A stretch of DNA of 32,000 nt from Breznakia sp. PF5-3 (GTDB lineage: Bacteria > Bacillota_I > Bacilli_A > Erysipelotrichales > Erysipelotrichaceae): positions 96,322 through 128,321 of the forward strand of contig NZ_JAQFIQ010000001.1 in assembly GCF_029504745.1 (NCBI RefSeq), given 5' to 3'. The notes beneath the pieces are model-generated. The model had not been told where the DNA came from, did not search any database, and was given only the letters and a program-made list of their open reading frames with translations. The position numbers were made by a program, and so were the translations under genes. This document shows, one piece after another, positions 6,538-32,000 of the stretch (its first letter is position 1; each line of letters opens with the position of its first letter).

Positions 6538-8787
6538 ATGAGTCAAAGAAATGAAACGCATATGCACGAACACAACCATGATGGATCGTGTTGCAATCAC
6601 ACAAGTCGTGTGGAAAAACAAGAGGTGAATGAAAATCATCACCATGACCATGATCATTCTCACTGCAGTTGTGAAAGCCAAGCAGAAGAGGATGATGTAG
6701 GCGATATACAGGCCAAATATAAATATAAGATAGTTGGTCTTGATTGTGCTAATTGTGCAATGAAAGTAGAGGATACCCTCAATAAGCAAAATTTTATTAA
6801 GGATGCAAAAATAAATTTTTCTAGCGGTTTGCTATATGTAAATCCTAGTAAGCAAGCAAATGATGATACTTTACAAGAGAAGATTGCAAAGATTGTAGAT
6901 GATGTTGAACCAGGTGTTAAAATTGTTGATACAGAAAGTGATGTTGATACAAGTAATAAGGGTGAATTGATTCATCTACTAGTAGGTATTGGATTGTTTT
7001 TGATTGCTCTTTATTTTGAATCGAGGATTAACTTTTCACCAATTTTCTTATATATGATTCCATATTTATTCATTGGCTATAAAGTATTATGGAAATCTGT
7101 CCGCAATATTATGAAAGGTGAGATTTTCGATGAAAACTTTTTAATGTCTATCGCTACCATTGGAGCCTTTGTTGTTGGGTCTTATGAAGAAGCAGTGGAA
7201 GTTATGTTGTTTTATAGCATTGGTGAACTTTTACAATCTTATGCAGTTAATAAATCAAGACGTTCTATATCTGATTTAATGGATATCAAGAGTGAATATG
7301 CTAATTTGATTAAGAGTGATGGTAGTGAAGTGAAAGTGGATCCAAAATCTTTAAAAATAAATGATATGATTAGTATCAAGGCAGGAGAAAAGGTTCCTGT
7401 TGATGGTGTTATTGTGAATGGAGCATCATCTTTAGATATTTCTGCTCTTAGTGGTGAAGCTGCTTTAAAAGATGTTGGTGCCGATGATGAAATTTTAGCA
7501 GGATCCATTAATACAAATGGTCTTCTAAAAGTAAAAGTTACAAAAATCTTTGAAGATTCTACCGTGGCGAAAATATTGGAACTTGTTGAAAATGCAGCGA
7601 ATAAAAAATCTCCAATTGAAAATTTTATTACTAAATTTGCTAAGATTTATACTCCAATTGTTGTATTTTTAGCATTGGCTATCGTTCTTATTCCATCCTT
7701 AATCTATGGATTTGATGAGTTCAATACATGGTTATATCGTGGATGTACATTCTTAGTTATATCTTGTCCATGTGCACTTGTTGTATCTGTACCATTAGGT
7801 GTATTTGCTGGTATTGGTAGCGCAAGTAAAATTGGTGCACTTGTGAAAGGCGGGAATTATTTAGAATTATTGAATGATGTAAATTGTATTATCTTTGATA
7901 AAACTGGAACAATTACAAAAGGGAATTTTGAAGTCAGTGATTGGAGTGGTGATTCAAACATCTTAGAGTATGCAGCATATGCTGAAAGTTATTCTAATCA
8001 TCCGATTGCAAAGAGTATTGTTTCAAAATATGGTAAAAAAATTGATTTTAAACGTTTGGAAAACTATCAGGAACTTGCTGGTTTTGGAGTAAGTGTAGAA
8101 TTTGATGGAAAAGCTTTAATCGCTGGTAACGAAAAACTAATGAAGCAAGAAAAAATTGAATATACTGAAACGGATGCACTTGGCACAGTTATATATATTG
8201 CATATGACGGACTTTTTGTAGGGTATATAATAATTAGTGATGAAATTAAAAAATCTAGTAGAGAGGCTTTAAATGAACTCAGAGAGCTTGGTATTACCAA
8301 TACTGTTATGTTAACTGGTGATCGTGAAGCAATTGCTAATAATATTGCAAATGATGTAGGAATTCAAAGTGTTCATGCACAATTGTTACCACAAGATAAA
8401 GTTTCTATTTTAGAAAACTACTTGTCTAATAAAGATAATACTGTAGCCTTTGTTGGTGATGGCATTAATGATGCTCCATCGCTTATGCGTGCAGATATAG
8501 GTATATCTATGGGAGGTATTGGTAGTGATGTAGCAATTGAAGCAAGTGATCTTGTTCTTATGACAGATGATTTGTTACTTATTCCCAAAACGATTAAAAT
8601 TAGTCGTAAGACTAAAAAAATCGTTATGCAAAACATAATATTCTCACTTGCAGTTAAATTGATTGTTTTAATTCTATCAGCAATTGGTGTTGCAAATATG
8701 AGGATGGGAGTCTTTGCAGATGTTGGTGTTACTTTGATAGCAATTATAAACTCCATGCGTGCTTTAATTGCATATAAGCATGTATAA
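6538..8787 (+). CDS. heavy-metal translocating P1B-type ATPase (Cd/Zn/Co type, CadA/ZntA-like)
   Basis: 749-aa ORF. It has a His/Cys-rich N-terminus and an HMA domain with GLDCANCAMKVE. It also has the CPC membrane motif (ISCPCALV), the phosphorylation site FDKTGTIT, SNHPIA (HP motif) and the hinge GDGINDAP. Confidence 0.93.
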   Translation: MSQRNETHMHEHNHDGSCCNHTSRVEKQEVNENHHHDHDHSHCSCESQAEEDDVGDIQAKYKYKIVGLDCANCAMKVEDTLNKQNFIKDAKINFSSGLLYVNPSKQANDDTLQEKIAKIVDDVEPGVKIVDTESDVDTSNKGELIHLLVGIGLFLIALYFESRINFSPIFLYMIPYLFIGYKVLWKSVRNIMKGEIFDENFLMSIATIGAFVVGSYEEAVEVMLFYSIGELLQSYAVNKSRRSISDLMDIKSEYANLIKSDGSEVKVDPKSLKINDMISIKAGEKVPVDGVIVNGASSLDISALSGEAALKDVGADDEILAGSINTNGLLKVKVTKIFEDSTVAKILELVENAANKKSPIENFITKFAKIYTPIVVFLALAIVLIPSLIYGFDEFNTWLYRGCTFLVISCPCALVVSVPLGVFAGIGSASKIGALVKGGNYLELLNDVNCIIFDKTGTITKGNFEVSDWSGDSNILEYAAYAESYSNHPIAKSIVSKYGKKIDFKRLENYQELAGFGVSVEFDGKALIAGNEKLMKQEKIEYTETDALGTVIYIAYDGLFVGYIIISDEIKKSSREALNELRELGITNTVMLTGDREAIANNIANDVGIQSVHAQLLPQDKVSILENYLSNKDNTVAFVGDGINDAPSLMRADIGISMGGIGSDVAIEASDLVLMTDDLLLIPKTIKISRKTKKIVMQNIIFSLAVKLIVLILSAIGVANMRMGVFADVGVTLIAIINSMRALIAYKHV

Positions 8788-8813
8788 TTAACAGTAGTAT
8801 TATTTAATAATTT

Positions 8814-8849
8814 AAAAAAACTAGACACATAAATCATGTCTAGTTTTTT
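8814..8849. terminator. bidirectional Rho-independent terminator between convergent genes
   Basis: aaaaaactagaca (8815-8827) pairs with tgtctagtttttt (8837-8849). The stem is flanked by an A-run and a T-run, so it serves both the ATPase (+) and the LCP gene (-). Confidence 0.85.
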
Positions 8850-8887
8850 GATGTAATCGCTATTTTGCTATATTGAGAAAATATTTC

Positions 8888-10636
8888 TTATCCTCCTGAT
8901 TCAGGAGTCTCAGGTTCTGTTGGTGTTGTTTCTGGAGGGGCAGTTTCCCCTGGGTCTGGAACAGTAGGTTCTACAGGCTTTTCTTCAGGCTCTTCTTCTG
9001 GAATGTAAGGCGTTTCTGTTTCAGGGACATAATAGTCATCGTCATAATTTGTATTTTCATTCACTTGTACATTTCCACCACTATAAGTTTCAAGGTAAGT
9101 AACGCCTTCCACTTCTTCATAACTAGGTAATTGTGCTCCCAAGTCATTTAAATCAAAAGCAAATTTCTTAAACGTTGTAGGCTTTATGATCATTTGATAT
9201 TTTTTATATAGAGTATCTAAGTCCGTCATACTTAATACATAACATGATAAAGGGGTATTACTTCCCATACTTGCTGTTGTAAGCATGTAAGAACCACCAT
9301 GATCCATTGATGTATTACCAAATGTCCAAGGACTTAAATCATTTAATTCATTGTTTATGAAATCAGAAAGTTGATCATAAGAGATATTCGTTTTTACATA
9401 TTTAGGAACAATATCTAATAATGCTGGTACTTTTGTAGCACCATCTTTTGTAAGTAGTTTATTAGCAATTCCTTTTACAACTAATTGTTGTGCTTGAGTA
9501 CGTTCAATATCACCATAAGTTTTACGATGTCTAGCTAATGCTAATGATTCTTCACCATTAAGTGTTTGAAGTCCCTTATCCAACACAATTAAATCTTCAG
9601 GAGCAAAACTTCTTTTTGAATTTTGTTCTTCAAAGGCAATTGGAACATCAACTTCAATACCTCCAATAGCATCAACAATCTGAACGACAGATGTAAAGTT
9701 AACTTGTACATAGAAATCAATGTCAAAACCAATTACATCATCTAAAGAATCCATGGTATTTTCAATTCCATCATTACTCGTGTGTGTCAATTTGTCATCG
9801 CCACCACCCAAAGCTAAATTTGGAATATAAGCATCCCTAGGGAAGGAAACCATCTCTACGTGATTTGTTAAAGGATTGACAATCAAAATCATATTAACAT
9901 CACTACGTAAACTTGCTTCACCATCATCTGTAGTATCAACACCACTTAAGAGAATGGTAAATGGTTCTTTGGTAAGATCTTTTGTATTTTCTGAAGTATT
10001 TGTATTTGTTACTTTTCTTTTATACGTTGCAATTGTTTTGATGCCTTCTGTGTAGCCTTCACGTTCTGCTTCAACATGTTGTAAATAAGAAGAAGTAATA
10101 ATCATTGCATCGATATCATTAGCATCCATTTTTTCAGCTAAAGATAAGTAGCTTTCTTCTTTTACATAATTAATGTTATTCGCTACTTTATTCAATTGCT
10201 TTTTACCGTAATTCGCATTTTCTTTATCTAGTCCATCTTGGACACCAACTTTTTTATCTGAGAGATCACTATCTGATTCTAAATTACTATCATTTTTTGC
10301 AATTACAGTAATCGTTATATATTTATCTTGATTTGTATTTGTAATTTGTCGAATTGAAGAAACTCCTTTATGCGCATAAAATGCAGAAAATCCATATAGC
10401 CCACAAAGAATTACAATCATAAATCGACGACCCCATAATGGCTTTCCACTCATCTTTTTAAAAGAAAGTGCTAAAAAGATAAGATATATTAATAAGAAAA
10501 TCGCCAAGGCAGCAATTCTCCATTTTTCTGGTAAGCTCTTAATATCCCAAATATAATAACAGCTCAATGCCATCAATAGAGTTAAGGTAATTAACAATAC
10601 ATAATCTGCAATTCTTGATTTTTTTAACCGTCCCAT
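8888..10636 (-). CDS. LCP family protein (LytR-CpsA-Psr cell-wall glycopolymer transferase), with extra N-terminal domain and Pro/Glu/Thr-rich tail
   Basis: 582-aa ORF with N-terminal TM helices. The LCP core is FTILLSGVD....RSDVNMILIVNP....EMVSFPRDAYIP ... LALARHRK. The C-terminal 60 aa are rich in P, E and T. Confidence 0.88.
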   Translation of the reverse strand: MGRLKKSRIADYVLLITLTLLMALSCYYIWDIKSLPEKWRIAALAIFLLIYLIFLALSFKKMSGKPLWGRRFMIVILCGLYGFSAFYAHKGVSSIRQITNTNQDKYITITVIAKNDSNLESDSDLSDKKVGVQDGLDKENANYGKKQLNKVANNINYVKEESYLSLAEKMDANDIDAMIITSSYLQHVEAEREGYTEGIKTIATYKRKVTNTNTSENTKDLTKEPFTILLSGVDTTDDGEASLRSDVNMILIVNPLTNHVEMVSFPRDAYIPNLALGGGDDKLTHTSNDGIENTMDSLDDVIGFDIDFYVQVNFTSVVQIVDAIGGIEVDVPIAFEEQNSKRSFAPEDLIVLDKGLQTLNGEESLALARHRKTYGDIERTQAQQLVVKGIANKLLTKDGATKVPALLDIVPKYVKTNISYDQLSDFINNELNDLSPWTFGNTSMDHGGSYMLTTASMGSNTPLSCYVLSMTDLDTLYKKYQMIIKPTTFKKFAFDLNDLGAQLPSYEEVEGVTYLETYSGGNVQVNENTNYDDDYYVPETETPYIPEEEPEEKPVEPTVPDPGETAPPETTPTEPETPESGG

Positions 10637-20927: not shown

Positions 20928-21548
20928 ATGGCGTTAAAGAAAAAGAAATTAAAAACACCAAAAAATACTGGACAAAAGAAAACTAACAAGAGAAGACCAA
21001 ATTGGATATTGCGTTTTACACTTATCGTCATCGCAGTTCCTTTAATTATCTTAGCTTGGGTTTTAATGACCTCTTTAGAAACATCGGGTGAACCAGTTGT
21101 TGGAAATCGTTTTGATAACCAATTGGATCCTGCAATTACTGAAAAAAAAGTAGATGAATTAAAAGGGAAGTTTACATATGCTGAAGCTGAAAATGTAGAA
21201 GTAAATTTAAAAAGTGCTACTTTAAGAATTACCATTGATGTAGCTGATGCAACTACGGATGAGCAAATTACAGCAATTATGAATGATGTATACGCAAAGG
21301 TAGATGAAACACTACCAATTGCTACGTATTTCACAAATAAAAAAGCAGTAAAAATGTACGATCTTGAAATAAATGTATATAATTATATACCTGATGATAC
21401 AAATAGAGCTGGATATATTTATCATCTTTTAACAAAAAATGCTGGAAATGATGGACCAGAACATTCAATTCCATCACAACCAAAAAATCAATCTACAGCA
21501 GATGATTTAAAGAAAGCACCTAAAAAAGGAGAACAAGTCGGACAATAG
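20928..21548 (+). CDS. hypothetical membrane-anchored protein
   Basis: 206-aa ORF with AAGGAG 7 nt upstream. It has a Lys-rich N-terminus, one TM helix (ILRFTLIVIAVPLIILAWVLM) and an extracytoplasmic domain of unknown family. The antisense ORF 20912-21334 is rejected. Confidence 0.65.
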   Translation: MALKKKKLKTPKNTGQKKTNKRRPNWILRFTLIVIAVPLIILAWVLMTSLETSGEPVVGNRFDNQLDPAITEKKVDELKGKFTYAEAENVEVNLKSATLRITIDVADATTDEQITAIMNDVYAKVDETLPIATYFTNKKAVKMYDLEINVYNYIPDDTNRAGYIYHLLTKNAGNDGPEHSIPSQPKNQSTADDLKKAPKKGEQVGQ

Positions 21549-21556
21549 TCCGATTT

Positions 21557-22891
21557 TTGTTATTAAATATGATGAAAAAAAATGATATTTATGAAGGTAC
21601 ATGTAGTGATTATACATATGATGGTCTTGGGATTGTAAAAGTTGATGGTTTTTCAGTATTTGTTAAGAATGTCATTATTGGTGAAACTATTTTATTTAAA
21701 CTCATTAAAATAAAGAAAAATTATGGCTATGGACGTATAATTGAGATTAAAAACCCCTCCATACACCGCACAACACCATTCTGTGAGTATTTTGGAAAAT
21801 GTGGGGGGTGTCAATTACAGCATATGGATTTAGAAGCGCAAAATGAATTAAAAGAAAATATAGTCATCAATAATATTCGCAGAATTGCTCATAGTGATGC
21901 TGAAGTTAAACCAATACTCAATGGACAGCCAAGAGCATATCGTAACAAGGCACAATTTCCATTAACAGCAAATCCATACGCTCTTGGCTTTTATCGTATT
22001 CATTCAAATGAAATTGTTGATATTACTATGTGTCCTATACAAAGTGACAAGATAAATACACTATATCAATACCTGAGATTACATTTAAAATCAACTTCTT
22101 TTGTATCTAAATTACGTCATATACTTATTAAACATGCATTTCATACAGATGAGATCATGTTGGTATTTATCGCTAGTGATAACATACAAAATAGTATGGA
22201 AGAATTTATAAACAAACTAACAAAAGAACAGAATATTACTAGTGTTATTTTAAATGTAAACCGCTCTACAAATAATGTAATTCTGGGAAATGAAGAACAT
22301 TTACTTTTTGGTAGTAATACGATCAATGAATCGCTAATGGGATATACCTTTCAAATTGCTTCCAAATCGTTTTATCAAGTCAACCCAGAGCAGACAAAGG
22401 TTTTGTACGAGAAAGTATTAGAGTATGCAAATATCACTAAAAATGACACTGTAATTGATTTATACTGTGGAGTAGGAAGTATATCTTTATTTCTTGCGAA
22501 ATCAGCAAAGCAGGTAATTGGGATTGAAATCGTTGAAGATGCGATTACAAATGCAAAAGCAAATGCGAAAATGAATCATATTAATAATATTGAATTTGTA
22601 TGTAGTGATGCTGGTACATATGCTGAATATATGGTAGCGAATAATATTACTGCAAATATTGTTGTTCTAGATCCACCAAGAAAAGGATGTGATGATAAAA
22701 CAATTCAAAGTGTTATTAAGATGCACCCTGAACGTATTGTTTATGTATCTTGTAATCCTGCTACACTAGCAAGAGATATTGAAAAATTTGAACAATTTGA
22801 TTATAAATGTACCATCGTACAACCCGTTGATATGTTTCCACATACATTTCATGTGGAAACGGTCTGCTTGATGTCTAGGAAAGAGAAATAA
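21557..22891 (+). CDS. rlmCD: 23S rRNA (uracil-C5)-methyltransferase, RumA/RlmCD (TrmA) family
   Basis: 444-aa ORF with an N-terminal TRAM-like domain, the 4Fe-4S cysteines C....CGGCQLQH...C, the SAM motif DLYCGVGS, and the catalytic region DPPRKG ... YVSCNPATLARD. The start is uncertain: TTG at 21557, or ATG at 21569 or 21572. Confidence 0.9.
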   Translation: MLLNMMKKNDIYEGTCSDYTYDGLGIVKVDGFSVFVKNVIIGETILFKLIKIKKNYGYGRIIEIKNPSIHRTTPFCEYFGKCGGCQLQHMDLEAQNELKENIVINNIRRIAHSDAEVKPILNGQPRAYRNKAQFPLTANPYALGFYRIHSNEIVDITMCPIQSDKINTLYQYLRLHLKSTSFVSKLRHILIKHAFHTDEIMLVFIASDNIQNSMEEFINKLTKEQNITSVILNVNRSTNNVILGNEEHLLFGSNTINESLMGYTFQIASKSFYQVNPEQTKVLYEKVLEYANITKNDTVIDLYCGVGSISLFLAKSAKQVIGIEIVEDAITNAKANAKMNHINNIEFVCSDAGTYAEYMVANNITANIVVLDPPRKGCDDKTIQSVIKMHPERIVYVSCNPATLARDIEKFEQFDYKCTIVQPVDMFPHTFHVETVCLMSRKEK

Positions 22892-23039
22892 ATAGCGAAG
22901 TGTTGCGTATTTACTGGATTTTTTTGAGATTAGGCAATAGTTCATGAAAGTCCGTATTTCTTATTTTGAAACATATCTACTGCAAAAACGGTCAGAGTGT
23001 TTAGGCAGTGGATTAGATGTTATAGAAGGAGGCGTTTTC

Positions 23040-23813
23040 ATGGAATTTGATTTGAGAACTTGTGATGCAGCATACAACTTCGTTCTTGATTTTATGGGTA
23101 TGACTCCTGATGAGTACATCACAGAGAGTATTATAAATTGTGAGAATGACTTTGAGACATTTTGGAGCCGGAATATTAAACGAATAAAATCAATTGATAT
23201 TTCTGGGGTGAGGCTGATGGCATTTCATGTTGTAGGTTCAATTGATGAATGTTGCGAGATTAAAGAAAATGGTTTGATGAATTTACAAAGTGTTCTTTCG
23301 GAAGAAACCATCTTAAAGAAGCTATTAGAAAAAACAGGTGTCATATTTGATATTCCAAATAAGCTCGTGAGCTGTAAAGAGAATAATTATGACATTGATT
23401 ATGAGAAATACAAAGGCCATCATTTCTTGACAGGAATGGATGAAAAGTTATACCGTGTTGCTCATCGAGTTTATTATGATTTTTGTGTAAATGGATTCAT
23501 GGCTAATGATAATGTGTTCAATTATGGTACTAACATTCACGAAAGGCCTGAATTCTTAATGACACTCGGAGAATTATTTCCGCAGGCAGAAAAAGTTGAA
23601 AGTTTCTGGAAAACAAAAGCTAAGAGTTATAGAGTTGACTTCTATGCGACCATTGACCAAGTTCACCGATTCAATTTTGAACTTGATGAGTATAGAGACC
23701 CTCCTTACGAGGATTGGGTTGACCTTGATGATGATATGAAACTTAAAAAATGGATGTTATCACACATTATTGATAGAGCGCATGGCGATTTGGGCATACA
23801 ATTTTATATATAA
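23040..23813 (+). CDS. hypothetical protein (no recognised family), first gene of accessory region
   Basis: The ORF is open from 22944, but GAAGGAGG lies 7 nt upstream of the ATG at 23040, giving a 257-aa product (MEFDLRTCDAAY...). The protein is acidic and soluble-looking. I recognise no catalytic motif. Confidence 0.7.
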   Translation: MEFDLRTCDAAYNFVLDFMGMTPDEYITESIINCENDFETFWSRNIKRIKSIDISGVRLMAFHVVGSIDECCEIKENGLMNLQSVLSEETILKKLLEKTGVIFDIPNKLVSCKENNYDIDYEKYKGHHFLTGMDEKLYRVAHRVYYDFCVNGFMANDNVFNYGTNIHERPEFLMTLGELFPQAEKVESFWKTKAKSYRVDFYATIDQVHRFNFELDEYRDPPYEDWVDLDDDMKLKKWMLSHIIDRAHGDLGIQFYI

Positions 23814-23890
23814 AAGATGATGTGATAATTCCGGTAAATCAAATTATTGATATTTCAGAATTATAAAAGCATATAAAAGGCGGTGTGATT

Positions 23891-24442
23891 ATGGGTGAAT
23901 ATGTAAAAAAGAAAAAATACATGGTATTCCAAAGTGTAGAATCACTTCAGCAAGCTGTTAATGTTCTAAATGATGCGGCAGCTGCGGTAAATGATAAATC
24001 ACGTACAATTAGAGAAAGCGCAATCCCTGAAGTGCTTGCAGGAGTATTAGGTGCTGGTATTGGCGGAGTAGGTTCTTTTGCTGCACTTTACGGGTTGGGT
24101 TCTGTTGTAGGATTATCAGCAGCAGGTATAACATCAGGACTTGCTGCAGCAGGTAGCATTGTTAGCGGCGGTATGGTTGCAGGTGTATTCGTACTTGCAG
24201 CACCTGTAGCAGCCCTTGCAGCAGCAGGAGTAGGATTTGCTACACACTTAAAAAATAAACAGTTAAGACAAGAAAAAGAACGTTTGTATAAAGAAGCTTT
24301 GAAAAAGCATGAAGCAATTATTCAAGCTTTGAAATCTGAGGTTGATGCTGATAAAGAGCGTCTCGATTACTTACAGAGCTTAAATATTCTTCTTACGCAA
24401 ATAATAAAAGACTTAAAGAAGGATTTGGGTAAGGCGGCATGA
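23891..24442 (+). CDS. hypothetical Gly/Ala-rich (glycine-zipper) membrane protein with C-terminal coiled coil
   Basis: 183 aa from the ATG at 23891 (GTG at 23885 is also possible). Three regions are visible. There is an N-terminal helix. There are about 75 aa of G/A/V/S-rich hydrophobic sequence (GVLGAGIGGVGSFAALYGLGSVVGLSAAGITSGLAAAGSIVSGGMVAGVFVLAAPVAALAAAGVGFA). The C-terminus is a charged heptad-like helix (KNKQLRQEKERLYKEALKKHEAIIQALKSEVDADKERL). AAGGCGG serves as SD. Confidence 0.75.
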   Translation: MGEYVKKKKYMVFQSVESLQQAVNVLNDAAAAVNDKSRTIRESAIPEVLAGVLGAGIGGVGSFAALYGLGSVVGLSAAGITSGLAAAGSIVSGGMVAGVFVLAAPVAALAAAGVGFATHLKNKQLRQEKERLYKEALKKHEAIIQALKSEVDADKERLDYLQSLNILLTQIIKDLKKDLGKAA

Positions 24443-25800
24443 GCAAATTCAAGTACACTGAAACAGAACAACAATTTAATAATGCTTTGAATCATCAGTC
24501 AAAAGAATTAAGTTTAATTAAAAGACCTGATATGACATCAGTAGAAGTTTGCATTTCTGAGAGCGAAGAACTACTGAAGGAGTTAGGTATCTCTACAGAG
24601 AGTATGCCTGAAGTGGTTAACCCTACATTTCAAAGGGGGATGGTAGTTCCTACGTGGGAGGAATTGTGCATTCAAGCTGAACAGGAAGTTGGTTCAACAA
24701 CAGATTTAGAATCCCTTTTTACAGATGAAGAATTGAGAATGAATCAAGTTGCTCTACGTGCTTTGAATATCGATTACAATAATATTCATAAGCTTGATAA
24801 AATAGATATTACTATTTGTGCAACTGCAGGTATTTTGGGCGTTGTTGTTGATATTCTACTAATAGGAATTCCGAAAAAAACACCAGAAGGTTTAAAAGGT
24901 GGGCCACTTTCCAATTATGTAAGAGACTGGTTTAATCAAAGATTTCCAGAAGTAGAAATGGAAAAACTCTCCAATTCAAAAGTAAGCAAAGTATCATTTG
25001 ATGCTCAGGATAATCGCCATACTACAGAGTATGTTACCGGTTTATCTGCTTACTATCATAGATTGTTATCGCTTGGGCATGACCCTATCCTTGGATTGAT
25101 ATTTGGAGTTTATGACATTTTGACTGATAAAATGACGACGATTGATAAAACTGGCAAAATGGTATCTCAGGTTATGGAAAACTATGCAGACCGAAAAGAA
25201 AGTGATATTTTTGCTGCAATTGCTAAGCAGATTATTCATTTCAAATCTGACATTACAACGTCTATGGGGCTACCGGCTCCTTTGATGGCATTATTTAACT
25301 TACTCCAGTTTGGTAGTATTGGAGAAGAAGAACAGATAATTGCTGAAATTGTGCAGGGAATGTATTACGAAGGTTATGATTTCATTCATTTTTGTAGTAT
25401 GTCAATTCCGACAATGATAATTGAAGTAATCATCAGATTAGGCTATGGCATTAAGAGGATTAAAGAAGGTAATTCTATAAAGGACTCGATTCCTTTTTCA
25501 TTAAATCGAGAAAAACATCCAAAGCTGAGCACTATGTTATTCATTGGACATTCTGCGGCTACTGCTGTAAATGCTGGAAAGGTTTACTTCACCAAAAATC
25601 CTATGGCAATAAACTATCCTCAATGGATAACATTTGCTAAATATTTATACAAACAATTGAAATGGGTGTTGTTAGAGAAACAAGAACTTAAAGATGCCTA
25701 CGTTAGAGGTATCATTGCTGAAGAATTGAATGAAATATATGCTGAAATAGATAATAGCTTCACGGAAATGTCGGAAGAGTATATAGTTGTCTTTAATTAA
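24439..25800 (+). CDS. hypothetical membrane-associated protein, translationally coupled to the upstream gene
   Basis: 453-aa ORF. The ATGA start/stop overlap is at 24439-24442. The same AAGGCGG SD motif lies 1 nt upstream. Hydrophobic segments include ITICATAGILGVVVDILLIGIP, IHFCSMSIPTMIIEVIIRLGYGI and LSTMLFIGHSAATAVNAG. The conserved-looking stretch YHRLLSLGHDPILGLIFGVYD stands out. I recognise no family. Confidence 0.8.
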   Translation: MSKFKYTETEQQFNNALNHQSKELSLIKRPDMTSVEVCISESEELLKELGISTESMPEVVNPTFQRGMVVPTWEELCIQAEQEVGSTTDLESLFTDEELRMNQVALRALNIDYNNIHKLDKIDITICATAGILGVVVDILLIGIPKKTPEGLKGGPLSNYVRDWFNQRFPEVEMEKLSNSKVSKVSFDAQDNRHTTEYVTGLSAYYHRLLSLGHDPILGLIFGVYDILTDKMTTIDKTGKMVSQVMENYADRKESDIFAAIAKQIIHFKSDITTSMGLPAPLMALFNLLQFGSIGEEEQIIAEIVQGMYYEGYDFIHFCSMSIPTMIIEVIIRLGYGIKRIKEGNSIKDSIPFSLNREKHPKLSTMLFIGHSAATAVNAGKVYFTKNPMAINYPQWITFAKYLYKQLKWVLLEKQELKDAYVRGIIAEELNEIYAEIDNSFTEMSEEYIVVFN

Positions 25801-25806
25801 GAATCG

Positions 25807-25837
25807 CCCTCTCAACCATTATGGCTGGGAGGGTTTT
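25807..25837 (+). terminator. Rho-independent terminator after the 453-aa gene
   Basis: ccctctcaacca (25807-25818) pairs with tggctgggaggg (25822-25833): a 12-bp stem with two G-U pairs and a 3-nt loop. TTTT follows. Confidence 0.7.
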
Positions 25838-25849
25838 ATGCGTCTATGC

Positions 25850-26530
25850 TTATCTTTCAACATCGACCTTGAATCCGAATTTCAATTCAACGGTACAGTG
25901 AGTAGGCCAGATTATAATTTGCTTGAGCCAGCATTTTACAAGCTCCTGCTGAAGCTCCATAAGCTTCTCATCAATGCCATCCGTGGTGATTGCAGTAGAA
26001 GCTCTGATGACCGATGCGATATTTTGATTTATCTCTAAGAAGCTCATTCTAGACGATGAGTACAATTTCCTGCAGGTCAATCTCGTTGATGATTCTTGCG
26101 AGGCACTCAAGGCCATGGGTTCTAACTTGCTGATGCAGCGCCAGACGATGGATTTGCAGCCACGGTTGTTCCAATGAATTCTTCTGAACATTTCACCACA
26201 ATCACCACAAATAATAATCTGTGAGAAGCAGTGCTTGCAGCTGTAGCTTCGTTTCTTTCCATTAGCACTGGTCTTAACCACTCGCCTGTATACCAATTCT
26301 TCCTGCCACGCATGTAAATTTCTCTAGGAATAATCGCTTCGCGGTTTCCTTCAACATAATATTATGGAACGATGCCACTGTTCTTAACTCTGGTCTTGTT
26401 CGGTTTTTGGACTTTTTGTTGTAAAGTAAGAACCAAACATATCCACGGTTAAAATGTCGTAGGGTTGAGTTTAGAAGATGAAAACGGTAGGGAGTGGATA
26501 TAGGATTGTTAAAAGAAATTAATTGAGTAC
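25850..26530 (-). pseudogene. large serine recombinase remnant (C-terminal recombinase / zinc beta-ribbon part only; multiple frameshifts and stops; catalytic N-terminus absent)
   Basis: Recombinase-like peptide is spread over all three minus-strand frames:
- LQQKVQKPNKTRVKNSGIVP*YYVEGNREAIIPREIYM, with a stop at 26362-26364
- a frameshift near 26305-26311, leading into QEELVYRR...KKRSYSCKHCFSQIIICGDCGEMFRRIHWNNRGCKSIVWRCISKLE
- a frameshift near 26115-26122, leading into HGLECLARIINEIDLQEIVLIV*, with a stop at 26049-26051
- a further shift into FLEINQNIASVI...IDEKLMELQQELVK...HCTVELKFGFKVDVER
The pattern matches what I recall of TndX/Ccr-like large serine recombinases. The upper boundary (26530) is approximate. 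Confidence 0.8.
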
Positions 26531-26890
26531 GGAGTATCGAGAGGAAGTTTGCAAATAAGAGAAATAAAGAACAGAAAACCAATTGTATCTGGTACATTAT
26601 AAGAAGTGAATAATCCGCAAAAGTATTATACAGGCAGTAAAATGATTATGTCTAGTCTCCAGATACGGCTTCAATCTAGGTGTTCCTGCAACAGTTCATT
26701 GTGACGGAGAAAACTAATCATAACAGTGAATGATATTAATAATTTGTAGAGGATGGTGTTGTATACAATTAAAAACCTAGGATGATAATTTTATTATTTA
26801 AATATAATCAAATATCATCAAACTGATGCAAATATAATAAAAATGAGTATAATAAAGAGAAGCAGTTTAATTATACAGAGAGGTGATGTT

Positions 26891-27040
26891 ATGCAAAATA
26901 GCAACGAAGATATATGGATTAATATTAATGAAGCTTCTGAATATTTAGGTGTAAAAACTGTTACTTTACGTGGAGTGATAAAGAATGAGAATTCTGTTCC
27001 AGCATATAAAGTTGGTAAGCAGTGGAAATTCAAACGATAG
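26891..27040 (+). CDS. excisionase-family (MerR-like) helix-turn-helix DNA-binding protein
   Basis: 49 aa from the ATG at 26891 (GAGAGGTGA SD upstream). The sequence WININEASEYLGVKTVTLRGVIKNENSVPAYKVGKQWKFKR fits the HTH_17 / Xis-type pattern (L...EAA.yLGVs..TL......G.iPa.KvGk.WrF.r). The longer 65-aa ORF from 26843 is not favoured. Confidence 0.75.
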   Translation: MQNSNEDIWININEASEYLGVKTVTLRGVIKNENSVPAYKVGKQWKFKR

Positions 27041-27077
27041 AAATAGACAAATGAGTCAAAAGTGGAGAAAGCGAATT

Positions 27078-27239
27078 ATGAAACAAAAAAAGATTAAGCA
27101 TTTATCATTGTTTGCCGGGTACGGTGGTATAAATTTAGGTTTTCAATGGGCAGGTTTCAAGACAGTTGCAGGAGTAGAAATCAAACAATTTGCTTGTGAT
27201 ATTCTTAGAAAAAAATGGAGAGATAAATCATGGCACTAA
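27078..27239 (+). pseudogene. DNA (cytosine-5) methyltransferase, 5' stub only (motif I region), truncated
   Basis: MKQKKIKHLSLFAGYGGINLGFQWAGFKTVAGVEIKQFACD matches the N-terminus of C5-MTases: motif I F.G.GG and the following acidic E of motif II. The frame stops after 53 codons. I found no PCQ or ENV catalytic motif downstream in any frame. The stop overlaps the start of the DUF262 gene. Confidence 0.7.
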
Positions 27240-28531
27240 TTCAAGAAGAATTAAAAATAATTAAATTAAAAGACTTACTTAATATAAATTTAGCCTTGCC
27301 TTCATATCAGCGTCCATATAGTTGGAGTGCGAAGTCAAGTAATACCTTATTTATTGATACATATGAAGCCTTTAAGGATGGAATAAACGAATACCGACTT
27401 GGATCGGTAATCTTACAGAAAGAATGTTCAGAAAAATATAATATTGTTGATGGACAACAAAGACTTACTACCTTAACAATTCTACTTTTTTGCTTAGGCG
27501 ATGACAATCAAAGATTGTTGGAAGAAAAATACAGCAAACTATCTAATGATGTTATTGTTACAAATTTTGGTGTTCTTTCTAAAAGAACTAACGAATTAAC
27601 TGATGATGAGCGTAAAAAATATAAAGATTATCTTTTGAATCAATGCACCACGGTTCAAATTGTTACAGATAGTGAACAAGAGGCGTTTCAGTTCTTCGAT
27701 TCACAAAATTCTCGTGGAAAAGAGTTAGCACCACATGATTTGTTGAAATCATACCATTTACGGGAAATGAATAACGAGGATGAAAAACAAAAAGTTAAAA
27801 TTATAAATAACTGGGAAAATATGAATCAAGATGATCTAGATGATTTATTTAAAAACTATTTGTACCCACTAACTCAATGGTATAAGAAAAAAAAGGGGTT
27901 GGGTTATTCTTCAAGCAAAATTGATTCTTTCAAAGGAATTAAAGGAACAAATATCTACAACTATGCAATTTATCATAAAGCTAGTAGTCTGTATGTAGAA
28001 CAACTCAATACTAATGGTAGTAGTGAATTACTTGCCTCAAAATTTTTGAATCAATTCCAATTGACACAACCATTGATAGCTGGAAAGCGATTCTTTAATT
28101 ATACACTCCATTACGGGAAATTATTAGAAAAGATTCAAAAACAAATTAACCGCTTTTATAACCATGAGCAAGTTCCAAGTAAGCGTTCTGGCGATATTTA
28201 TATTATGCAACTTTATGAATGTTCATTATTATTCTTTGCAGATAGATTTGGTCTTGAGAGTTTAACCCAATCCGTGATGCAACAACTTTATTCATGGAGT
28301 TATTCATTGAGAATGGCAATGAATGCAGTGTATCCGCAGACCATCAATAAATATGCGCAAGGTCAGCATGAACGTGCAAACTATGGAATCGATATGTTTG
28401 CTGAAATCAGCGAAATGGCTGATCCAGAAGAATTGAAGTTGCTGGTGCTTACAAAGCCAGACATTGATGACAATAATAAGGAAAAATACAAAGCAATTTA
28501 TACATTGCTTTGTAAATGGAATGGATGGTAG
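27230..28531 (+). CDS. DUF262 (GmrS-like, ParB/Srx-fold NTPase) protein lacking a nuclease domain
   Basis: 433-aa ORF with the DUF262 motifs LPSYQRPYSW, VDGQQRLTTLTILL and FQFFDSQNSRGKELAPHDLLK. The C-terminal half is helical. I see no H..(N/H) His-Me motif. GGAGAG SD lies upstream. Confidence 0.85.
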   Translation: MALIQEELKIIKLKDLLNINLALPSYQRPYSWSAKSSNTLFIDTYEAFKDGINEYRLGSVILQKECSEKYNIVDGQQRLTTLTILLFCLGDDNQRLLEEKYSKLSNDVIVTNFGVLSKRTNELTDDERKKYKDYLLNQCTTVQIVTDSEQEAFQFFDSQNSRGKELAPHDLLKSYHLREMNNEDEKQKVKIINNWENMNQDDLDDLFKNYLYPLTQWYKKKKGLGYSSSKIDSFKGIKGTNIYNYAIYHKASSLYVEQLNTNGSSELLASKFLNQFQLTQPLIAGKRFFNYTLHYGKLLEKIQKQINRFYNHEQVPSKRSGDIYIMQLYECSLLFFADRFGLESLTQSVMQQLYSWSYSLRMAMNAVYPQTINKYAQGQHERANYGIDMFAEISEMADPEELKLLVLTKPDIDDNNKEKYKAIYTLLCKWNGW

Positions 28532-28534
28532 AAG

Positions 28535-30322
28535 ATGACTGAAGATTTAAAAATAATACCTGTATCAGATGTTTTTGCTAATATTAATTACCTAGTGCCA
28601 ATTTACCAACGTAACTATGCATGGAGAGAAACGCAAATAGAACAATTAATTGAAGATGTTGAAAGTTCCATTGACGATTCTAATAAAAACTACTTCTTAG
28701 GGAACTTGATTGTTAATCAAACGGATAACAATGTTTACGAAGTGATTGATGGACAGCAGCGATTAACGACTTTATATCTTCTTGAAAAGTATTTAGAGGT
28801 TGAATTTGCGAAAGAGGCATTGCGATTTGAGGCACGCGAAAAATCAAATCGTACCCTTTCCAATATCAGTAATAGTAATAACCAAGAATTAATTGAAGAA
28901 TTATTATCACCAGAAATTCTGAATGGTTTTCAAATCGTTGATAACTACTTCAAGAATAAAAATATCGACAAAAACAGATTTGCTCAAAAGTTAAAACAGG
29001 TTTTTCTTATTCGTATACAAGTTCCGCAGAATATTGATTTAAACCATTATTTTGAAATTATGAATACGCGTGGAGAACAATTAGAACTTCACGAAATCGC
29101 TAAAGCTAAGTTGTTAGAAGCACTTGAAAGCGATCAAGATAGAAATATAGCAGCACAGATTTGGGAAAAATGTTCTGATATGAATTCCTATGTTCAGATG
29201 AATTTTGATGTGAGTGTGCGAAGGAGTATCTTTACCGAAAACTGGAGCAGTCTTATTCCATCAATTACAAATTTTGACTCTATAAAAAGTAAAATTTCTA
29301 CAGACAATAAATCTACAGACAAAAAGTGTTTAATTGATATCTTGAAAGAAAATAAAATGGTTTATGTGTCAGACATGCAATCTGAAGATGAGAATGAACG
29401 TTTTGAATCGACTATTTCATTTCCAAACTTTTTATTGCAAGTCAATTCGGTTCTGAGAAATATTGGAGAAGAGGATGCAAACCTTGATGATAAACACTTT
29501 CTTAATAATTTATCTTGGGCATGGTCATCACCTGAAAATGCGAAAAATTTCTTGTTCCATATATTGAAATGTCGAGTGTTATTTGACAAGTATGTTTTAA
29601 AACGTGAGTTTGCTAGAGATTACAAAGAAACGGGCAAATGGTCCCTACAGCGTTTAGAAAAATACCGGGATAGCAAGAAAAATAGTGATAAACCAAAATA
29701 CGTTGGTACATTTGGCGATGAAGGTAATGAAAATAAGAAGTTAAGAACTCTTCAATCTTGTTTGCGTATTACTTATACATCACCAAAAACTATGCACTGG
29801 ATTACCGTTACTTTATCTAGCTTGTTAGAGAATGAGGAAGCTGATATTATTACTGTGCTAGAAAACTACTGTAAAAAGAAAGTCGTTGATTCCGATTACC
29901 AAAACCGAAACGGTTTTGAATTTGAACGCATTGTATTTTCATATCTTGATTATTTAATTTATCGAGATGGATATTCGTATGATGGAGAAGAAATAATATC
30001 ACCAATGCAAGAGGATTGGCAATTCCAGTTTAGAAGTTCCATTGAACATTTCCAACCTCAGCATCCAGTTGAAGGAGATTCTTGGGAACAGGGCGACTTG
30101 AACGAATTCGGTAATTTAGCGTTAATAACGGTTTCGGGGAACTCTAAGTTTTCTAACTTGCCACCTGCTGGAAAAATTAATTCATATCCGAGTGTCATCA
30201 GTCAAAGTCTGAAATTAAAAATCATGGAAAAAATGACGAGACTTGATGATGGAAAATGGACAGAAGAAAAGTCAAGTAGACATAAAAAAGAAATGTTCAG
30301 CATTTTGAAAAATAAAGGGTAG
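28535..30322 (+). CDS. GmrSD-family type IV (modification-dependent) restriction endonuclease-like protein (DUF262 + DUF1524)
   Basis: 595-aa ORF. The N-terminal DUF262 motifs are VPIYQRNYAW, IDGQQRLTTLYLL and FEIMNTRGEQLELHEIAKAKLL. The C-terminal DUF1524 His-Me finger-like motif is SIEHFQPQHP ... FGNLALITVSGNSKFSN. The gene starts 3 nt after the preceding stop. Confidence 0.88.
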   Translation: MTEDLKIIPVSDVFANINYLVPIYQRNYAWRETQIEQLIEDVESSIDDSNKNYFLGNLIVNQTDNNVYEVIDGQQRLTTLYLLEKYLEVEFAKEALRFEAREKSNRTLSNISNSNNQELIEELLSPEILNGFQIVDNYFKNKNIDKNRFAQKLKQVFLIRIQVPQNIDLNHYFEIMNTRGEQLELHEIAKAKLLEALESDQDRNIAAQIWEKCSDMNSYVQMNFDVSVRRSIFTENWSSLIPSITNFDSIKSKISTDNKSTDKKCLIDILKENKMVYVSDMQSEDENERFESTISFPNFLLQVNSVLRNIGEEDANLDDKHFLNNLSWAWSSPENAKNFLFHILKCRVLFDKYVLKREFARDYKETGKWSLQRLEKYRDSKKNSDKPKYVGTFGDEGNENKKLRTLQSCLRITYTSPKTMHWITVTLSSLLENEEADIITVLENYCKKKVVDSDYQNRNGFEFERIVFSYLDYLIYRDGYSYDGEEIISPMQEDWQFQFRSSIEHFQPQHPVEGDSWEQGDLNEFGNLALITVSGNSKFSNLPPAGKINSYPSVISQSLKLKIMEKMTRLDDGKWTEEKSSRHKKEMFSILKNKG

Positions 30323-30755: not shown

Positions 30756-32000
30756 CTATTCATCATATTTTGTATAAATGAAGTCAAATATTTCACCGTT
30801 TATATCAGAATATGAATAGATTTGTTTTCTAGTATTTCTAGGGATTTCAGTTGAAATGTTCGTGAAGAACGTTGTTTGGGTTTCTTCATTTAGCAGCATT
30901 AACTGCTCATAAGAGATTACAAACTTAGTACCTGTTTTAAGTACTGAATAAACATATCTGGCAACCTTGTTTGCAATAGCTGTGACTGCTAACTTATGAC
31001 GTTTCTTGTTTCCGTTCTTGATTTTCTCAAAGTGAGCTTTAAGAACAGGATTATGACGGCGAGCAAATTCGGCAATCATATAGATAGCATGACGTAAATA
31101 ACGCGAACCACGTTTAGAGATTTTACCATGAGTATCTACAGAGGAACCAGACTTGGAGTTACAAGGACATAAACCAATGTAACTGACAAGTTTATCAGCA
31201 CAACTAAACAGTTTAATATCACTAATTTCAGAAAGAATAGCAGAAGCAGTGATATTACCACAACCAGGCATTGATTTTAATAAATCAAATGCTTCAAATG
31301 ATGAAGCAAGTACCTTCAATTCTTTTTCCAAAGAACGAAGAATTTCTTTAAGACGAAGTACTTCATCAACATTATCAAGGATAACGCGTTTCGAAGCGAG
31401 AGATATCTCAAAAGTGTTTAATGTATCTGAACACAAACGAAAGAGTTCATCAATCTTATCCATGCTTACACGCTTCTTACTAGCAGTAAAAGCAATGTTG
31501 TATACTTCCTCTTTGGAAGAATGCATGATATCATAAGTTGTAGGATATATTGATAAGATTGCAAGGAACACAGCAGATTTGGGTTCAAATACATACTGTA
31601 GTTCAGGAAAGTGTTTGTCACATCTACCAATGAGGCGATTAACTTCTTGAGTGTATGATTTCTTGCGTTGACAGTAACGGTGGAACGTATCTTTCAAATC
31701 AGTATGTCCTTTTATATTGGAATTAGGAGTTTTATTAACAAATAAAACATCATTCTCATTCGCAATAATAGAAGCAATAGATTGAGCATCAAGAGGATCA
31801 CTTTTACTCTTATTATGAGTGTCACACCAACGTTTAACATAAGTGGTGTTAAGTAACTTAACATGCTCATTATCAAGAGTATTAGAACATAGCCAATGAA
31901 AGAGGTTATCCATATAGTTACCAGTAACTTCCATCGCAAAAGTTATATTGGTACAATTAGAATTTGCAAAGGATCTAACAAGGTCAATGAAAGCATTGAC
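30756..32000 (-). CDS. IS110 family transposase / recombinase (N-terminus outside window)
   Basis: The minus-strand frame stays open from 31934 to base 32000 (VNAFIDLVRSFANSNCTNITFAMEVTGNYMDNL...). The true start is therefore beyond the window edge. DEDD-domain pieces are present (AMEVTGNY; KSDPLDAQSIA). So is the C-terminal Transposase_20 signature (MPGCGNITASAILSEI.DI..F....KLVSYIGLCP...SGSS......ISKRGSRYLRHAIY). Confidence 0.9.
   Translation of the reverse strand, partial: VNAFIDLVRSFANSNCTNITFAMEVTGNYMDNLFHWLCSNTLDNEHVKLLNTTYVKRWCDTHNKSKSDPLDAQSIASIIANENDVLFVNKTPNSNIKGHTDLKDTFHRYCQRKKSYTQEVNRLIGRCDKHFPELQYVFEPKSAVFLAILSIYPTTYDIMHSSKEEVYNIAFTASKKRVSMDKIDELFRLCSDTLNTFEISLASKRVILDNVDEVLRLKEILRSLEKELKVLASSFEAFDLLKSMPGCGNITASAILSEISDIKLFSCADKLVSYIGLCPCNSKSGSSVDTHGKISKRGSRYLRHAIYMIAEFARRHNPVLKAHFEKIKNGNKKRHKLAVTAIANKVARYVYSVLKTGTKFVISYEQLMLLNEETQTTFFTNISTEIPRNTRKQIYSYSDINGEIFDFIYTKYDE
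30756..32000 (-). mobile_element. IS110-family insertion sequence (partial; ends not determinable from this window)
   Basis: The call rests on the transposase above. IS110-family elements lack classical terminal inverted repeats, so I cannot place the 3' end within the AT-rich 30416-30755 spacer. Confidence 0.6.

Follow-up and report, generated by a model that had tools for sequence, protein, structure and literature searches.

A TerB-less, Bunzi-like gene pair in Breznakia sp. PF5-3 combines a BnzB homologue with a short BnzA-like partner

Two overlapping open reading frames (ORFs), ORF1 and ORF2, were analyzed in a window of 32,000 nucleotides (nt) from Breznakia sp. PF5-3 (NCBI RefSeq assembly GCF_029504745.1, contig NZ_JAQFIQ010000001.1, positions 96,322 to 128,321; "the window" denotes this whole stretch, and positions are counted from its first letter). 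The pair is a TerB-less variant of the anti-phage system Bunzi, neither a canonical Bunzi member nor a new kind of system. By homology, ORF2 is a BnzB and ORF1 is equivalent to the C-terminal half of BnzA (membrane region and coiled coil), lacking the TerB domain and the N-terminal domain. We consider it likely that both genes together form a translationally coupled anti-phage module related to Bunzi, with ORF2 as the effector. A preliminary description of this DNA had proposed an abortive-infection or defence module and suggested that it could be an undescribed system. The defence assignment now appears likely, given the membership of ORF2 in the BnzB family of a verified Bunzi and the mobile and defence genes nearby; the novelty did not survive, as the BnzB family was named in 2022 (bioRxiv 10.1101/2022.05.11.491447) and only the TerB-less architecture is apparently uncatalogued. 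The pair is 100% identical to Breznakia sp. PF5-3 M2475_000111 and M2475_000112.

Relation of the pair to BnzA and BnzB

Bunzi was named in 2022 by Millman et al. as a two-gene anti-phage system, in which BnzA carries a TerB domain, transmembrane (TM) helices and a lipid-interacting domain and for which a role in "membrane surveillance" was proposed (bioRxiv 10.1101/2022.05.11.491447). The verified system is that of Ligilactobacillus animalis DSM 20602 (BnzA, 546 aa; BnzB, 487 aa; Table S2 of that study), which protected B. subtilis when cloned alone and is marked "Verified" in Tables S2 and S18 (bioRxiv 10.1101/2022.05.11.491447). The TerB domain is the usual hallmark by which the literature characterises Bunzi, and reviews up to 2026 give its mechanism as unknown.

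The PADLOC profile of BnzB matched ORF2 with an E-value of 3.1e-62, aligning residues 9-435 to profile positions 54-502 of 504. For the published L. animalis and E. coli proteins, Table S2 gives the N-terminal 400 residues, and these were used for direct comparison. ORF2 showed 29% identity to L. animalis BnzB over 256 aa (E 8e-20), and 13 columns were invariant with both published BnzB proteins (D123, G131, D138, L177, D188, H207, H214, P216, G219, H267, D271, P279 and P281). The match between ORF1 and the PADLOC profile of BnzA (E 2.4e-10) covered only positions 314-411 of 544, or 18% of the profile. Within this region, ORF1 and the TM segment of E. coli BnzA were 61% identical over 31 aa, with the motif GSVVG[LM]SAAG[IL]TS, and the sequence that follows the TM region in L. 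animalis BnzA ("...LLQEAIKRHE") was paralleled by "...LYKEALKKHE" in ORF1. For canonical BnzA, alignment of the C-terminal coiled coil extended only to "...KRHEMG". Just 44 residues precede the membrane region of ORF1, which has no counterpart of residues 1-310 of L. animalis or E. coli BnzA, and no Pfam match to TerB (PF05099) was found at E <= 1 in ORF1 or in the upstream gene X.

Both systems therefore have the same ground plan, in which gene A is followed by an adjacent gene B on the same strand; the B proteins are homologous over their full length and share invariant Asp, His and Pro residues, and the A proteins carry a glycine-zipper TM motif and a subsequent "...EA[IL]K[KR]HE..." helix. 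In contrast, canonical BnzA (546-555 aa) contains lipid-interacting and TerB domains N-terminal to the TM region, whereas the 183-aa ORF1 has neither. Because these two descriptive features of Bunzi are missing, the pair was assigned to a TerB-less variant. The TerB-less architecture appears not yet to be catalogued: the published list of Bunzi systems (Table S18) holds no entry from the six short-form genera that were checked (Peptoanaerobacter, Catenibacterium, Butyrivibrio, Atopobium, Veillonella and Marinilactibacillus), and Marinilactibacillus, including the short-form carrier M. piezotolerans DSM 16108, is present in other tables of the same study. Shango and Dionysus are TerB-containing defence systems that have been grouped with Bunzi as possible "membrane surveillance" systems. 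Their link to Bunzi is the TerB domain, which is absent from ORF1 and ORF2, and neither system showed PADLOC homology to either protein.

Boundaries and expression signals of the gene pair

The preliminary description had recognised ORF1 correctly but begun it at a GTG codon (23885). The start is almost certainly the ATG at 23891, because ORF1 homologues in databases are 181-183 aa long with N-termini reading MGEY or MGDY and because the upstream AAGGCGG motif lies at a fitting distance from this codon and just 1 nt from the GTG (Table 1). The earlier observation that AAGGCGG precedes both ORFs also held; the window contains three copies where 0.78 would be expected, a number reached in 4 of 100 shuffles, and two of the three stand before ORF1 and ORF2. 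Its reading as a Shine-Dalgarno motif of ORF2, however, did not: this copy is only 1 nt from the ATG and codes for the widely conserved C-terminal ...GKAA of ORF1, and is thus badly spaced. Coupling of ORF1 and ORF2 therefore more likely depends on the ATGA overlap than on a well-spaced Shine-Dalgarno sequence. The overlap itself was confirmed, and the same 4-nt overlap (a gap of -4) between A and B is present in many homologous loci.

RNA folding recovered the terminator that had been described after the pair, as a 12-pair hairpin (25806-25834) followed by UUUUAU with a free energy of -18.4 kcal/mol (z-score -2.8). This hairpin was not picked up by a simple terminator/promoter scan, which also gave no convincing plus-strand promoter 5' of ORF1; transcription together with gene X is possible. 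The proposal of a single expression unit was borne out, and the pairing is conserved across phyla. Both ORFs are intact and full length relative to their homologues, and ratios of nonsynonymous to synonymous substitution rates (dN/dS) of 0.12-0.15 for ORF1 and 0.06-0.14 for ORF2 indicate purifying selection.

The short-partner form is conserved across genomes and viruses

An alignment of 12 sequences served as the query of a genome scan, and 87 loci were analyzed. An ORF1 homologue was located just 5' of the ORF2 homologue on the same strand at 70 of them, and in 29 of 31 IMG/VR contigs (28 with a short partner and one with a 459-aa ORF), so that the adjacency and co-occurrence which the preliminary description had proposed to examine were found in both collections. 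In the IMG/VR contigs, pairing held down to 30-33% ORF2 identity. Nearly all upstream partners homologous to ORF1 measured 170-230 aa. The two genes were adjacent or overlapping at 48 of the 70 paired loci, and at the other 22 a gene of 100-118 aa, encoding a single TM helix and a coiled coil, intervened. The 87 loci span Bacillota, Actinomycetota, Bacteroidota, Pseudomonadota, Chloroflexota and the Candidate Phyla Radiation, and the identities of A and B to the copies in the window co-vary (r = 0.88). TerB was absent from all ORF1-like partners tested, and no conserved third gene emerged, the 111 nearest neighbours from 63 dereplicated loci matching 132 different Pfam families. All homologues of either gene seen in annotated records were labelled "hypothetical protein". 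Read from these loci, the short-partner arrangement is a conserved family and not a local truncation.

Among the 17 loci lacking an ORF1 homologue, three were ended by contig ends, one had its upstream region replaced and 13 were of a Coriobacteriia type, found in Collinsella, Olsenella, Raoultibacter and one Ruminococcaceae metagenome-assembled genome (MAG). Twelve of these 13 carry a small partner of ~100 aa upstream of BnzB; in the Ruminococcaceae MAG, the upstream gene encodes a 139-aa hydrophobic protein with an acidic tail. Profile alignment with hhalign matched the small partners to the last TM helix and coiled coil of ORF1 (probability 95%, E 2e-8), and the signature RKHEAxIxxLK is common to both. 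Natural fusions of A and B were also found. P0376 (691 aa) has the order zipper, coiled coil, BnzB, whereas P0285 and P0289 (about 620 aa each) join the N-terminal helix through a soluble linker to the coiled coil and BnzB, and their A part lacks any hydrophobic segment. The zipper and coiled-coil part of P0376 matched PDC-M09A, a PADLOC candidate system, with an E-value of 4e-10, whereas ORF1 itself gave no match to it at E <= 1. Owing to the match of P0376, similar membrane modules may be used in other candidate systems too.

Additional components or domains were seen in some relatives. In three- and four-gene versions, a protein with an XRE-type helix-turn-helix (HTH) domain and a C-terminal Gly/Ala-rich TM helix is encoded directly 5' of the ORF1 homologue (Table 1); it could be a membrane-anchored regulator, and its gene is absent from the window. 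Two loci encode ORF1 homologues of ~450 aa (L074, 6490-7836; L103, 4619-5998). Only that of L074 was scanned; its N-terminal domain (~280 aa) gave no Pfam match and may represent an alternative sensor domain at the place where canonical BnzA has bPH and TerB.

Composition and predicted structure of ORF1 and ORF2

ORF1 consists of an N-terminal amphipathic helix (residues ~16-34), a glycine-zipper membrane region (45-118) and a charged C-terminal helical pair (118-178) that includes the motif KKHEAII. The unusual composition noted in the preliminary description was borne out, as 70% of the 74 residues in the membrane region are Gly, Ala, Ser or Val and 40% of the last 65 residues are charged. 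Twelve overlapping [GAS]xxx[GAS]xxx[GAS] motifs start between residues 50 and 107, within the hydrophobic segment. Since no Pfam glycine-zipper family matched ORF1, "glycine zipper" is used here for a compositional class and not as a claim of homology. An alignment of 21 diverse homologues contained 16 invariant columns, and S82, G83, L84, G88, G93 and G98 are invariant across phyla. The AlphaFold 2 model of ORF1 was of low confidence (per-residue confidence score, pLDDT, of 52), with helices at 16-34, 118-149 and 155-178 only, and was kept out of fold searching. Searches of Pfam and NCBIfam gave nothing significant for ORF1, and a PDB sequence search gave no relatives; a match to PurE among PDB sequences (E 0.002) was rejected as a product of Gly/Ala composition. 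PHROG profiles yielded a weak Rz-like spanin match (E 0.008) located in the coiled coil.

ORF2 was modeled from an alignment of 56 diverse sequences with high confidence (pLDDT 93.2; predicted template modeling score 0.85) as a mostly alpha-helical protein with two small beta-hairpins. It carries a net charge of -18, one strongly hydrophobic helix (~121-142, modeled at pLDDT 97-98) and a weaker one around residue 320. Of the two membrane proteins proposed in the preliminary description, ORF1 has the expected hydrophobic region, but for ORF2 this class is not established, because of its net charge and the presence of only one strong and one weaker hydrophobic helix. The motif-like stretch singled out earlier, YHRLLSLGHDPILGLIFGVYD, proved to be the best conserved of the ORF2 family, with H207, H214 and G223 invariant and R208, G213, D215, P216, G219 and D226 nearly so. 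The motifs of ORF2 are HRxxSLGHDP, HxxSD, GLPAP and MYxxGYDF. Seven Asp and His residues are invariant (D123, D138, D188, H207, H214, H267 and D271), and the acidic N-terminal 110 residues are poorly conserved.

Profile and structure searches of the kind proposed in the preliminary description thus returned the PADLOC matches to BnzB and BnzA, but Pfam was empty for both proteins and Foldseek was empty for the ORF2 model. NCBIfam gave nothing significant for ORF2 either, no consistent weak Pfam family appeared across all 56 aligned BnzB relatives, and sequence and profile searches of the PDB found no relative. Foldseek of the model returned no fold relatives in the PDB (best E 0.85, template modeling score ~0.1) or BFVD (best E 0.07). 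As far as the PDB, BFVD and Pfam go, the model points to an uncharacterised fold for BnzB. An HD-domain assignment, considered for the H...HD...D pattern of ORF2, was dropped, as neither Pfam nor Foldseek supported it and D215 varies once canonical BnzB proteins are added. Alpha-helical pore-forming domains of the colicin/Bcl-2 type follow an "inside-out membrane protein" design, and an invariant His/Asp set is not typical of them. By analogy only, the model of ORF2 resembles these domains in being acidic, mostly helical and equipped with one very hydrophobic helix, whereas Foldseek shows no similarity between the two and ORF2 carries the invariant His/Asp set.

The pair as probable cargo of a decayed element at rumA

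A block comprising gene X, ORF1, ORF2 and the terminator (23003-25942) is ~90% identical at the DNA level in Peptoanaerobacter stomatis, Enterococcus camelliae and MAGs of Clostridia and Bacilli, and ~82% identical in Veillonella. The encoded proteins are 85-92% identical across classes, and their distribution is patchy. In Breznakia, Veillonella and Peptoanaerobacter, the block lies directly 3' of a rumA-like gene, whose 3' end in the window (22817-23020) is 87% identical to that of E. camelliae. G+C content is 34-40% over 22800-26600, compared to ~30% in the flanks.

Single serine integrases are known to target rumA, with insertion at its 3' end, the integrase gene at the far end of the element and attR located inside the integrase gene (Ambroset et al. 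2016, PMC4701971). The layout seen here is reminiscent of such elements, with rumA directly upstream, a dead recombinase remnant downstream on the minus strand and raised G+C content in between. The fragment with the Zn_ribbon_recom match lies at 25850-26296 (-), and the DNA of the remnant resembles the recombinase flank of the Peptoanaerobacter and Enterococcus loci. Loci L005 and L006 share this layout, with intact or longer recombinases in the same position. Large serine recombinases or their remnants stand beside the block in Breznakia and Peptoanaerobacter, and not in the Veillonella loci. Judged from this arrangement, a serine-recombinase element that has since decayed probably integrated at the 3' end of rumA, with the still intact pair as its cargo.

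Carriage by other mobile elements was also observed. A Streptococcus suis rum-locus prophage record carries the pair at 89% identity, a Limosilactobacillus mucosae plasmid carries it as well, and more distant BnzB relatives occur in 492 plasmid records. At the genome end of an Acutalibacteraceae temperate phage, a four-gene version (HTH-TM protein, A, small partner, B) adjoins recombinase-sized genes and an endolysin gene. Neighbours of the pair across the loci included PADLOC matches to REase_I, QatA, DndF, AbiEi, HEC-06, WYL and PDC candidate families, together with recombinases and transposases, and in Peptoanaerobacter a restriction-modification-like cluster adjoins the pair.

Some of these records showed individual peculiarities. 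In the S. suis record (phi-SsuFJNP8_rum, L090), the ORF1 homologue (8367-9004) is annotated as two coding sequences of 141 and 71 aa, suggesting a frameshift, and the pair is flanked by a tet(M) region on one side and type VII secretion genes on the other, which makes it probable that the record reaches beyond the phage proper. Large enterobacterial conjugative plasmids carry a distant BnzB relative (~30% identity) in hundreds of records; in one of these plasmids (Klebsiella IncHI1B, L088, 1839-5140), an IS3 insertion lies between the BnzB relative and an ORF1-like "membrane protein".

Proposed mode of action and alternatives

In the mechanism we propose, ORF1 would span the membrane as a hairpin or bundle of helices whose two ends face the cytoplasm, and the conserved N-terminal helix and "KHEA" coiled coil of ORF1 would dock ORF2. 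This topology is probable for ORF1, with the zipper as a membrane hairpin, because the N-terminal helix and the coiled coil are retained in fusions without a TM region. ORF2 would be the constant core and the effector, with its new all-alpha fold, invariant Asp/His set and very hydrophobic helix (presumably buried), and would work at the membrane, as a metal-dependent enzyme or through insertion into the bilayer. The module would fire when infection perturbs the envelope, and the infection would be aborted. In the minimal form, sensing would reside in the membrane module or in ORF2 itself, since this form lacks the accessory sensor domains found in canonical BnzA. Across the family, everything N-terminal to the TM and coiled-coil adaptor varies, and the Asp/His core of BnzB is invariant. 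Residues D188, H207, H214, H267 and D271 may make up a metal or catalytic site, provided that they cluster in space as presumed.

Several points weigh against this interpretation. We know of no biochemical activity for any BnzB; the argument for an enzyme is the invariant His/Asp set, and the BnzB model matches no fold. The hydrophobicity profile of ORF2 is compatible with either a membrane-inserted or a soluble protein. The ORF1 model is unreliable, so its topology is deduced only from termini that are conserved in TM-less fusions. The defence neighbourhood is described by family counts and not by enrichment statistics. Finally, the sole verified Bunzi has a TerB-containing BnzA, from which defence by the short pair would follow through homology, and the E. 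coli Bunzi of the same study was unverified (marked "x" in Table S2; bioRxiv 10.1101/2022.05.11.491447).

The roles of the two proteins could also be reversed, with the glycine zipper of ORF1 as the effector, forming an oligomeric pore or depolariser, and ORF2 as a cytoplasmic sensor or gatekeeper that keeps the pore closed until infection. Stacked small-xxx-small motifs, as in the G/A/S/V-rich 74 residues of ORF1, are typical of tight TM helix bundles, the six zipper residues invariant across phyla suggest more than a passive anchor, the motif is also retained in canonical BnzA, and the variable acidic N-terminus of ORF2 could provide a variable sensing surface. However, the zipper is dispensable in parts of the family, as BnzB of Coriobacteriia is paired with only a ~100-aa single-TM coiled-coil protein and the A part of P0285 and P0289 contains no hydrophobic segment, whereas the His/Asp core of BnzB is invariant. 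The pore-forming effector favoured in the preliminary description is weakened by these members, and we regard such a division of labour as plausible but less likely. Given that some members have a single TM helix in place of the zipper or lack it altogether and that the BnzB core is constant, BnzB is more likely the effector and ORF1 a membrane tether or regulator.

Mobile carriage raises the question of whom the pair serves. Copies ~90% identical in distant Bacillota at the rumA integration hotspot, the position at the end of a temperate phage genome beside recombinase-sized and endolysin genes, the prophage and plasmid records and the Rz-like spanin match of ORF1 would all be in keeping with a function for the element or prophage itself instead of host defence, such as superinfection exclusion at the membrane, lysis timing, addiction or toxin-immunity. 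Yet carriage by prophages and other elements is typical of true defence systems and discriminates neither reading, the spanin match is insignificant and falls in the coiled coil, and phage genes are not the nearest neighbours at most of the 87 loci. A homologous system, moreover, protected B. subtilis when cloned alone, and the toxin/immunity or competition module offered earlier gained no specific support; we consider service to the element improbable. Finally, we give hardly any credence to a housekeeping module for the envelope or for stress, or to a remnant in decay that has no current function. Neither protein belongs to a Pfam or NCBIfam family, and the island is decayed, with its dead recombinase, truncated C5 methyltransferase and insertion sequence (IS) element, but both ORFs are full length and under purifying selection, the genes are patchily distributed and horizontally transferred, with 85-92% identity across classes, and their neighbourhoods are heterogeneous with a G+C content that differs from the flanks. 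Distribution, neighbourhoods and dN/dS largely refute this explanation, leaving a Bunzi-related defence module with ORF2 as effector as the reading we prefer.

Implications for the Bunzi family

TerB and the lipid-binding domain are dispensable, as the locus in the window and its relatives show, and the short-partner pair gives the Bunzi family a new definition of its conserved core. Two elements are never lost: BnzB, with its confidently modeled but unmatched fold and invariant Asp/His set, and the adaptor composed of the TM region and "KHEA" coiled coil. This directs mechanistic attention to BnzB rather than TerB. At 2 kb, the minimal system offers a simple experimental handle on Bunzi. The distribution further suggests that TerB-centred descriptions, and perhaps detection rules, overlook as Bunzi relatives a widespread set of "hypothetical" pairs in gut and oral Bacillota, Coriobacteriia, plasmids and temperate phages. 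As a tentative extension, on which we would not insist, the ancient core of Bunzi might be BnzB together with a small coiled-coil adaptor tethered to the membrane, to which TerB would be added as one of several optional sensors; BnzB would then be an effector of new fold with an invariant Asp/His site, either a metalloenzyme directed at the membrane or a helical toxin inserting into it, able to sense infection without a recognisable sensor domain. If so, TerB-based descriptions of "membrane surveillance", and perhaps the detection rules, would miss most of the family, and the minimal pair would be the simplest handle on its mechanism.

Neighbouring genes

The accessory mosaic outlined in the preliminary description was found as stated, with a GmrSD-type gene pair, a serine-recombinase fragment and an IS110-family transposase (Table 1).

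Table 1 Coordinates of the gene pair, its expression signals and neighbouring features in the window, and of HTH genes at related loci
Feature	Position	Strand	Remarks
rumA-like 23S rRNA (uracil-5)-methyltransferase gene, left border of the island and probable integration target	21557..22891	+	Pfam tRNA_U5-meth_tr
Gene X, candidate cargo	23040..23813	+	~257 aa from Met33 of the ORF at 22944
AAGGCGG ribosome-binding site of ORF1	23877..23883	+	7 nt 5' of ATG 23891
ORF1, short BnzA-like partner	23891..24442	+	183 aa
ATGA start/stop overlap of ORF1 and ORF2	24439..24442	+	Read from the sequence
ORF2, BnzB homologue	24439..25800	+	453 aa
Intrinsic-terminator-like hairpin and U-tract closing the unit	25806..25840	+	RNA folding
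Decayed large serine recombinase, fragments	25850..26600	-	Zn_ribbon_recom match on a 148-aa fragment
GmrSD-type two-gene cassette	27230-30322	+	DUF7834 + GmrSD_N, then GmrSD_N + GmrSD_C; PADLOC HEC-06/Orf5-like
IS110-family transposase	30756-31934	-	
XRE-type HTH gene, related loci	L014 6600-7106; L016 6542-7093; L030 6550-7083; L091 246-743		

Gene X is 87% identical to a gene encoding 276-281 aa that lies 5' of the pair in Peptoanaerobacter, Enterococcus camelliae and several MAGs, and its C-terminus diverges in the window, where it is ~20 aa shorter. It produced no Pfam, NCBIfam, PHROG or PDB match and only a weak PADLOC match to PtuB (E 9e-5). A role as third component or TerB substitute was considered and rejected: gene X occurs only at loci with ORF2 identity above 84%, is decayed in Veillonella and is absent elsewhere. 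Being confined to this closest clade and decayed within it, gene X is not a core component, and may be a separate single-gene cargo.

A GmrSD-type cassette is also present a few kb 3' of the pair at the rumA locus of Veillonella (L001, L002 and L004, 17199-20404), with 67-78% DNA identity. As the cassette recurs at rumA in both genera, the flank of this gene seems to act as a hotspot to which defence genes return in different classes of Bacillota.

Three smaller ORFs complete the surroundings. A 206-aa ORF between gatB and the rumA-like gene (20928-21548, +) had no Pfam match. Ahead of the GmrSD-type cassette, a small HTH_17/excisionase-like ORF (26843-27040, +) overlaps an 84-aa ORF (26985-27239, +) that leads directly into the DUF7834 gene. 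The 84-aa product shows a C5 cytosine methyltransferase motif, but only the N-terminal one, and appears to be the relic of such an enzyme that has been lost.

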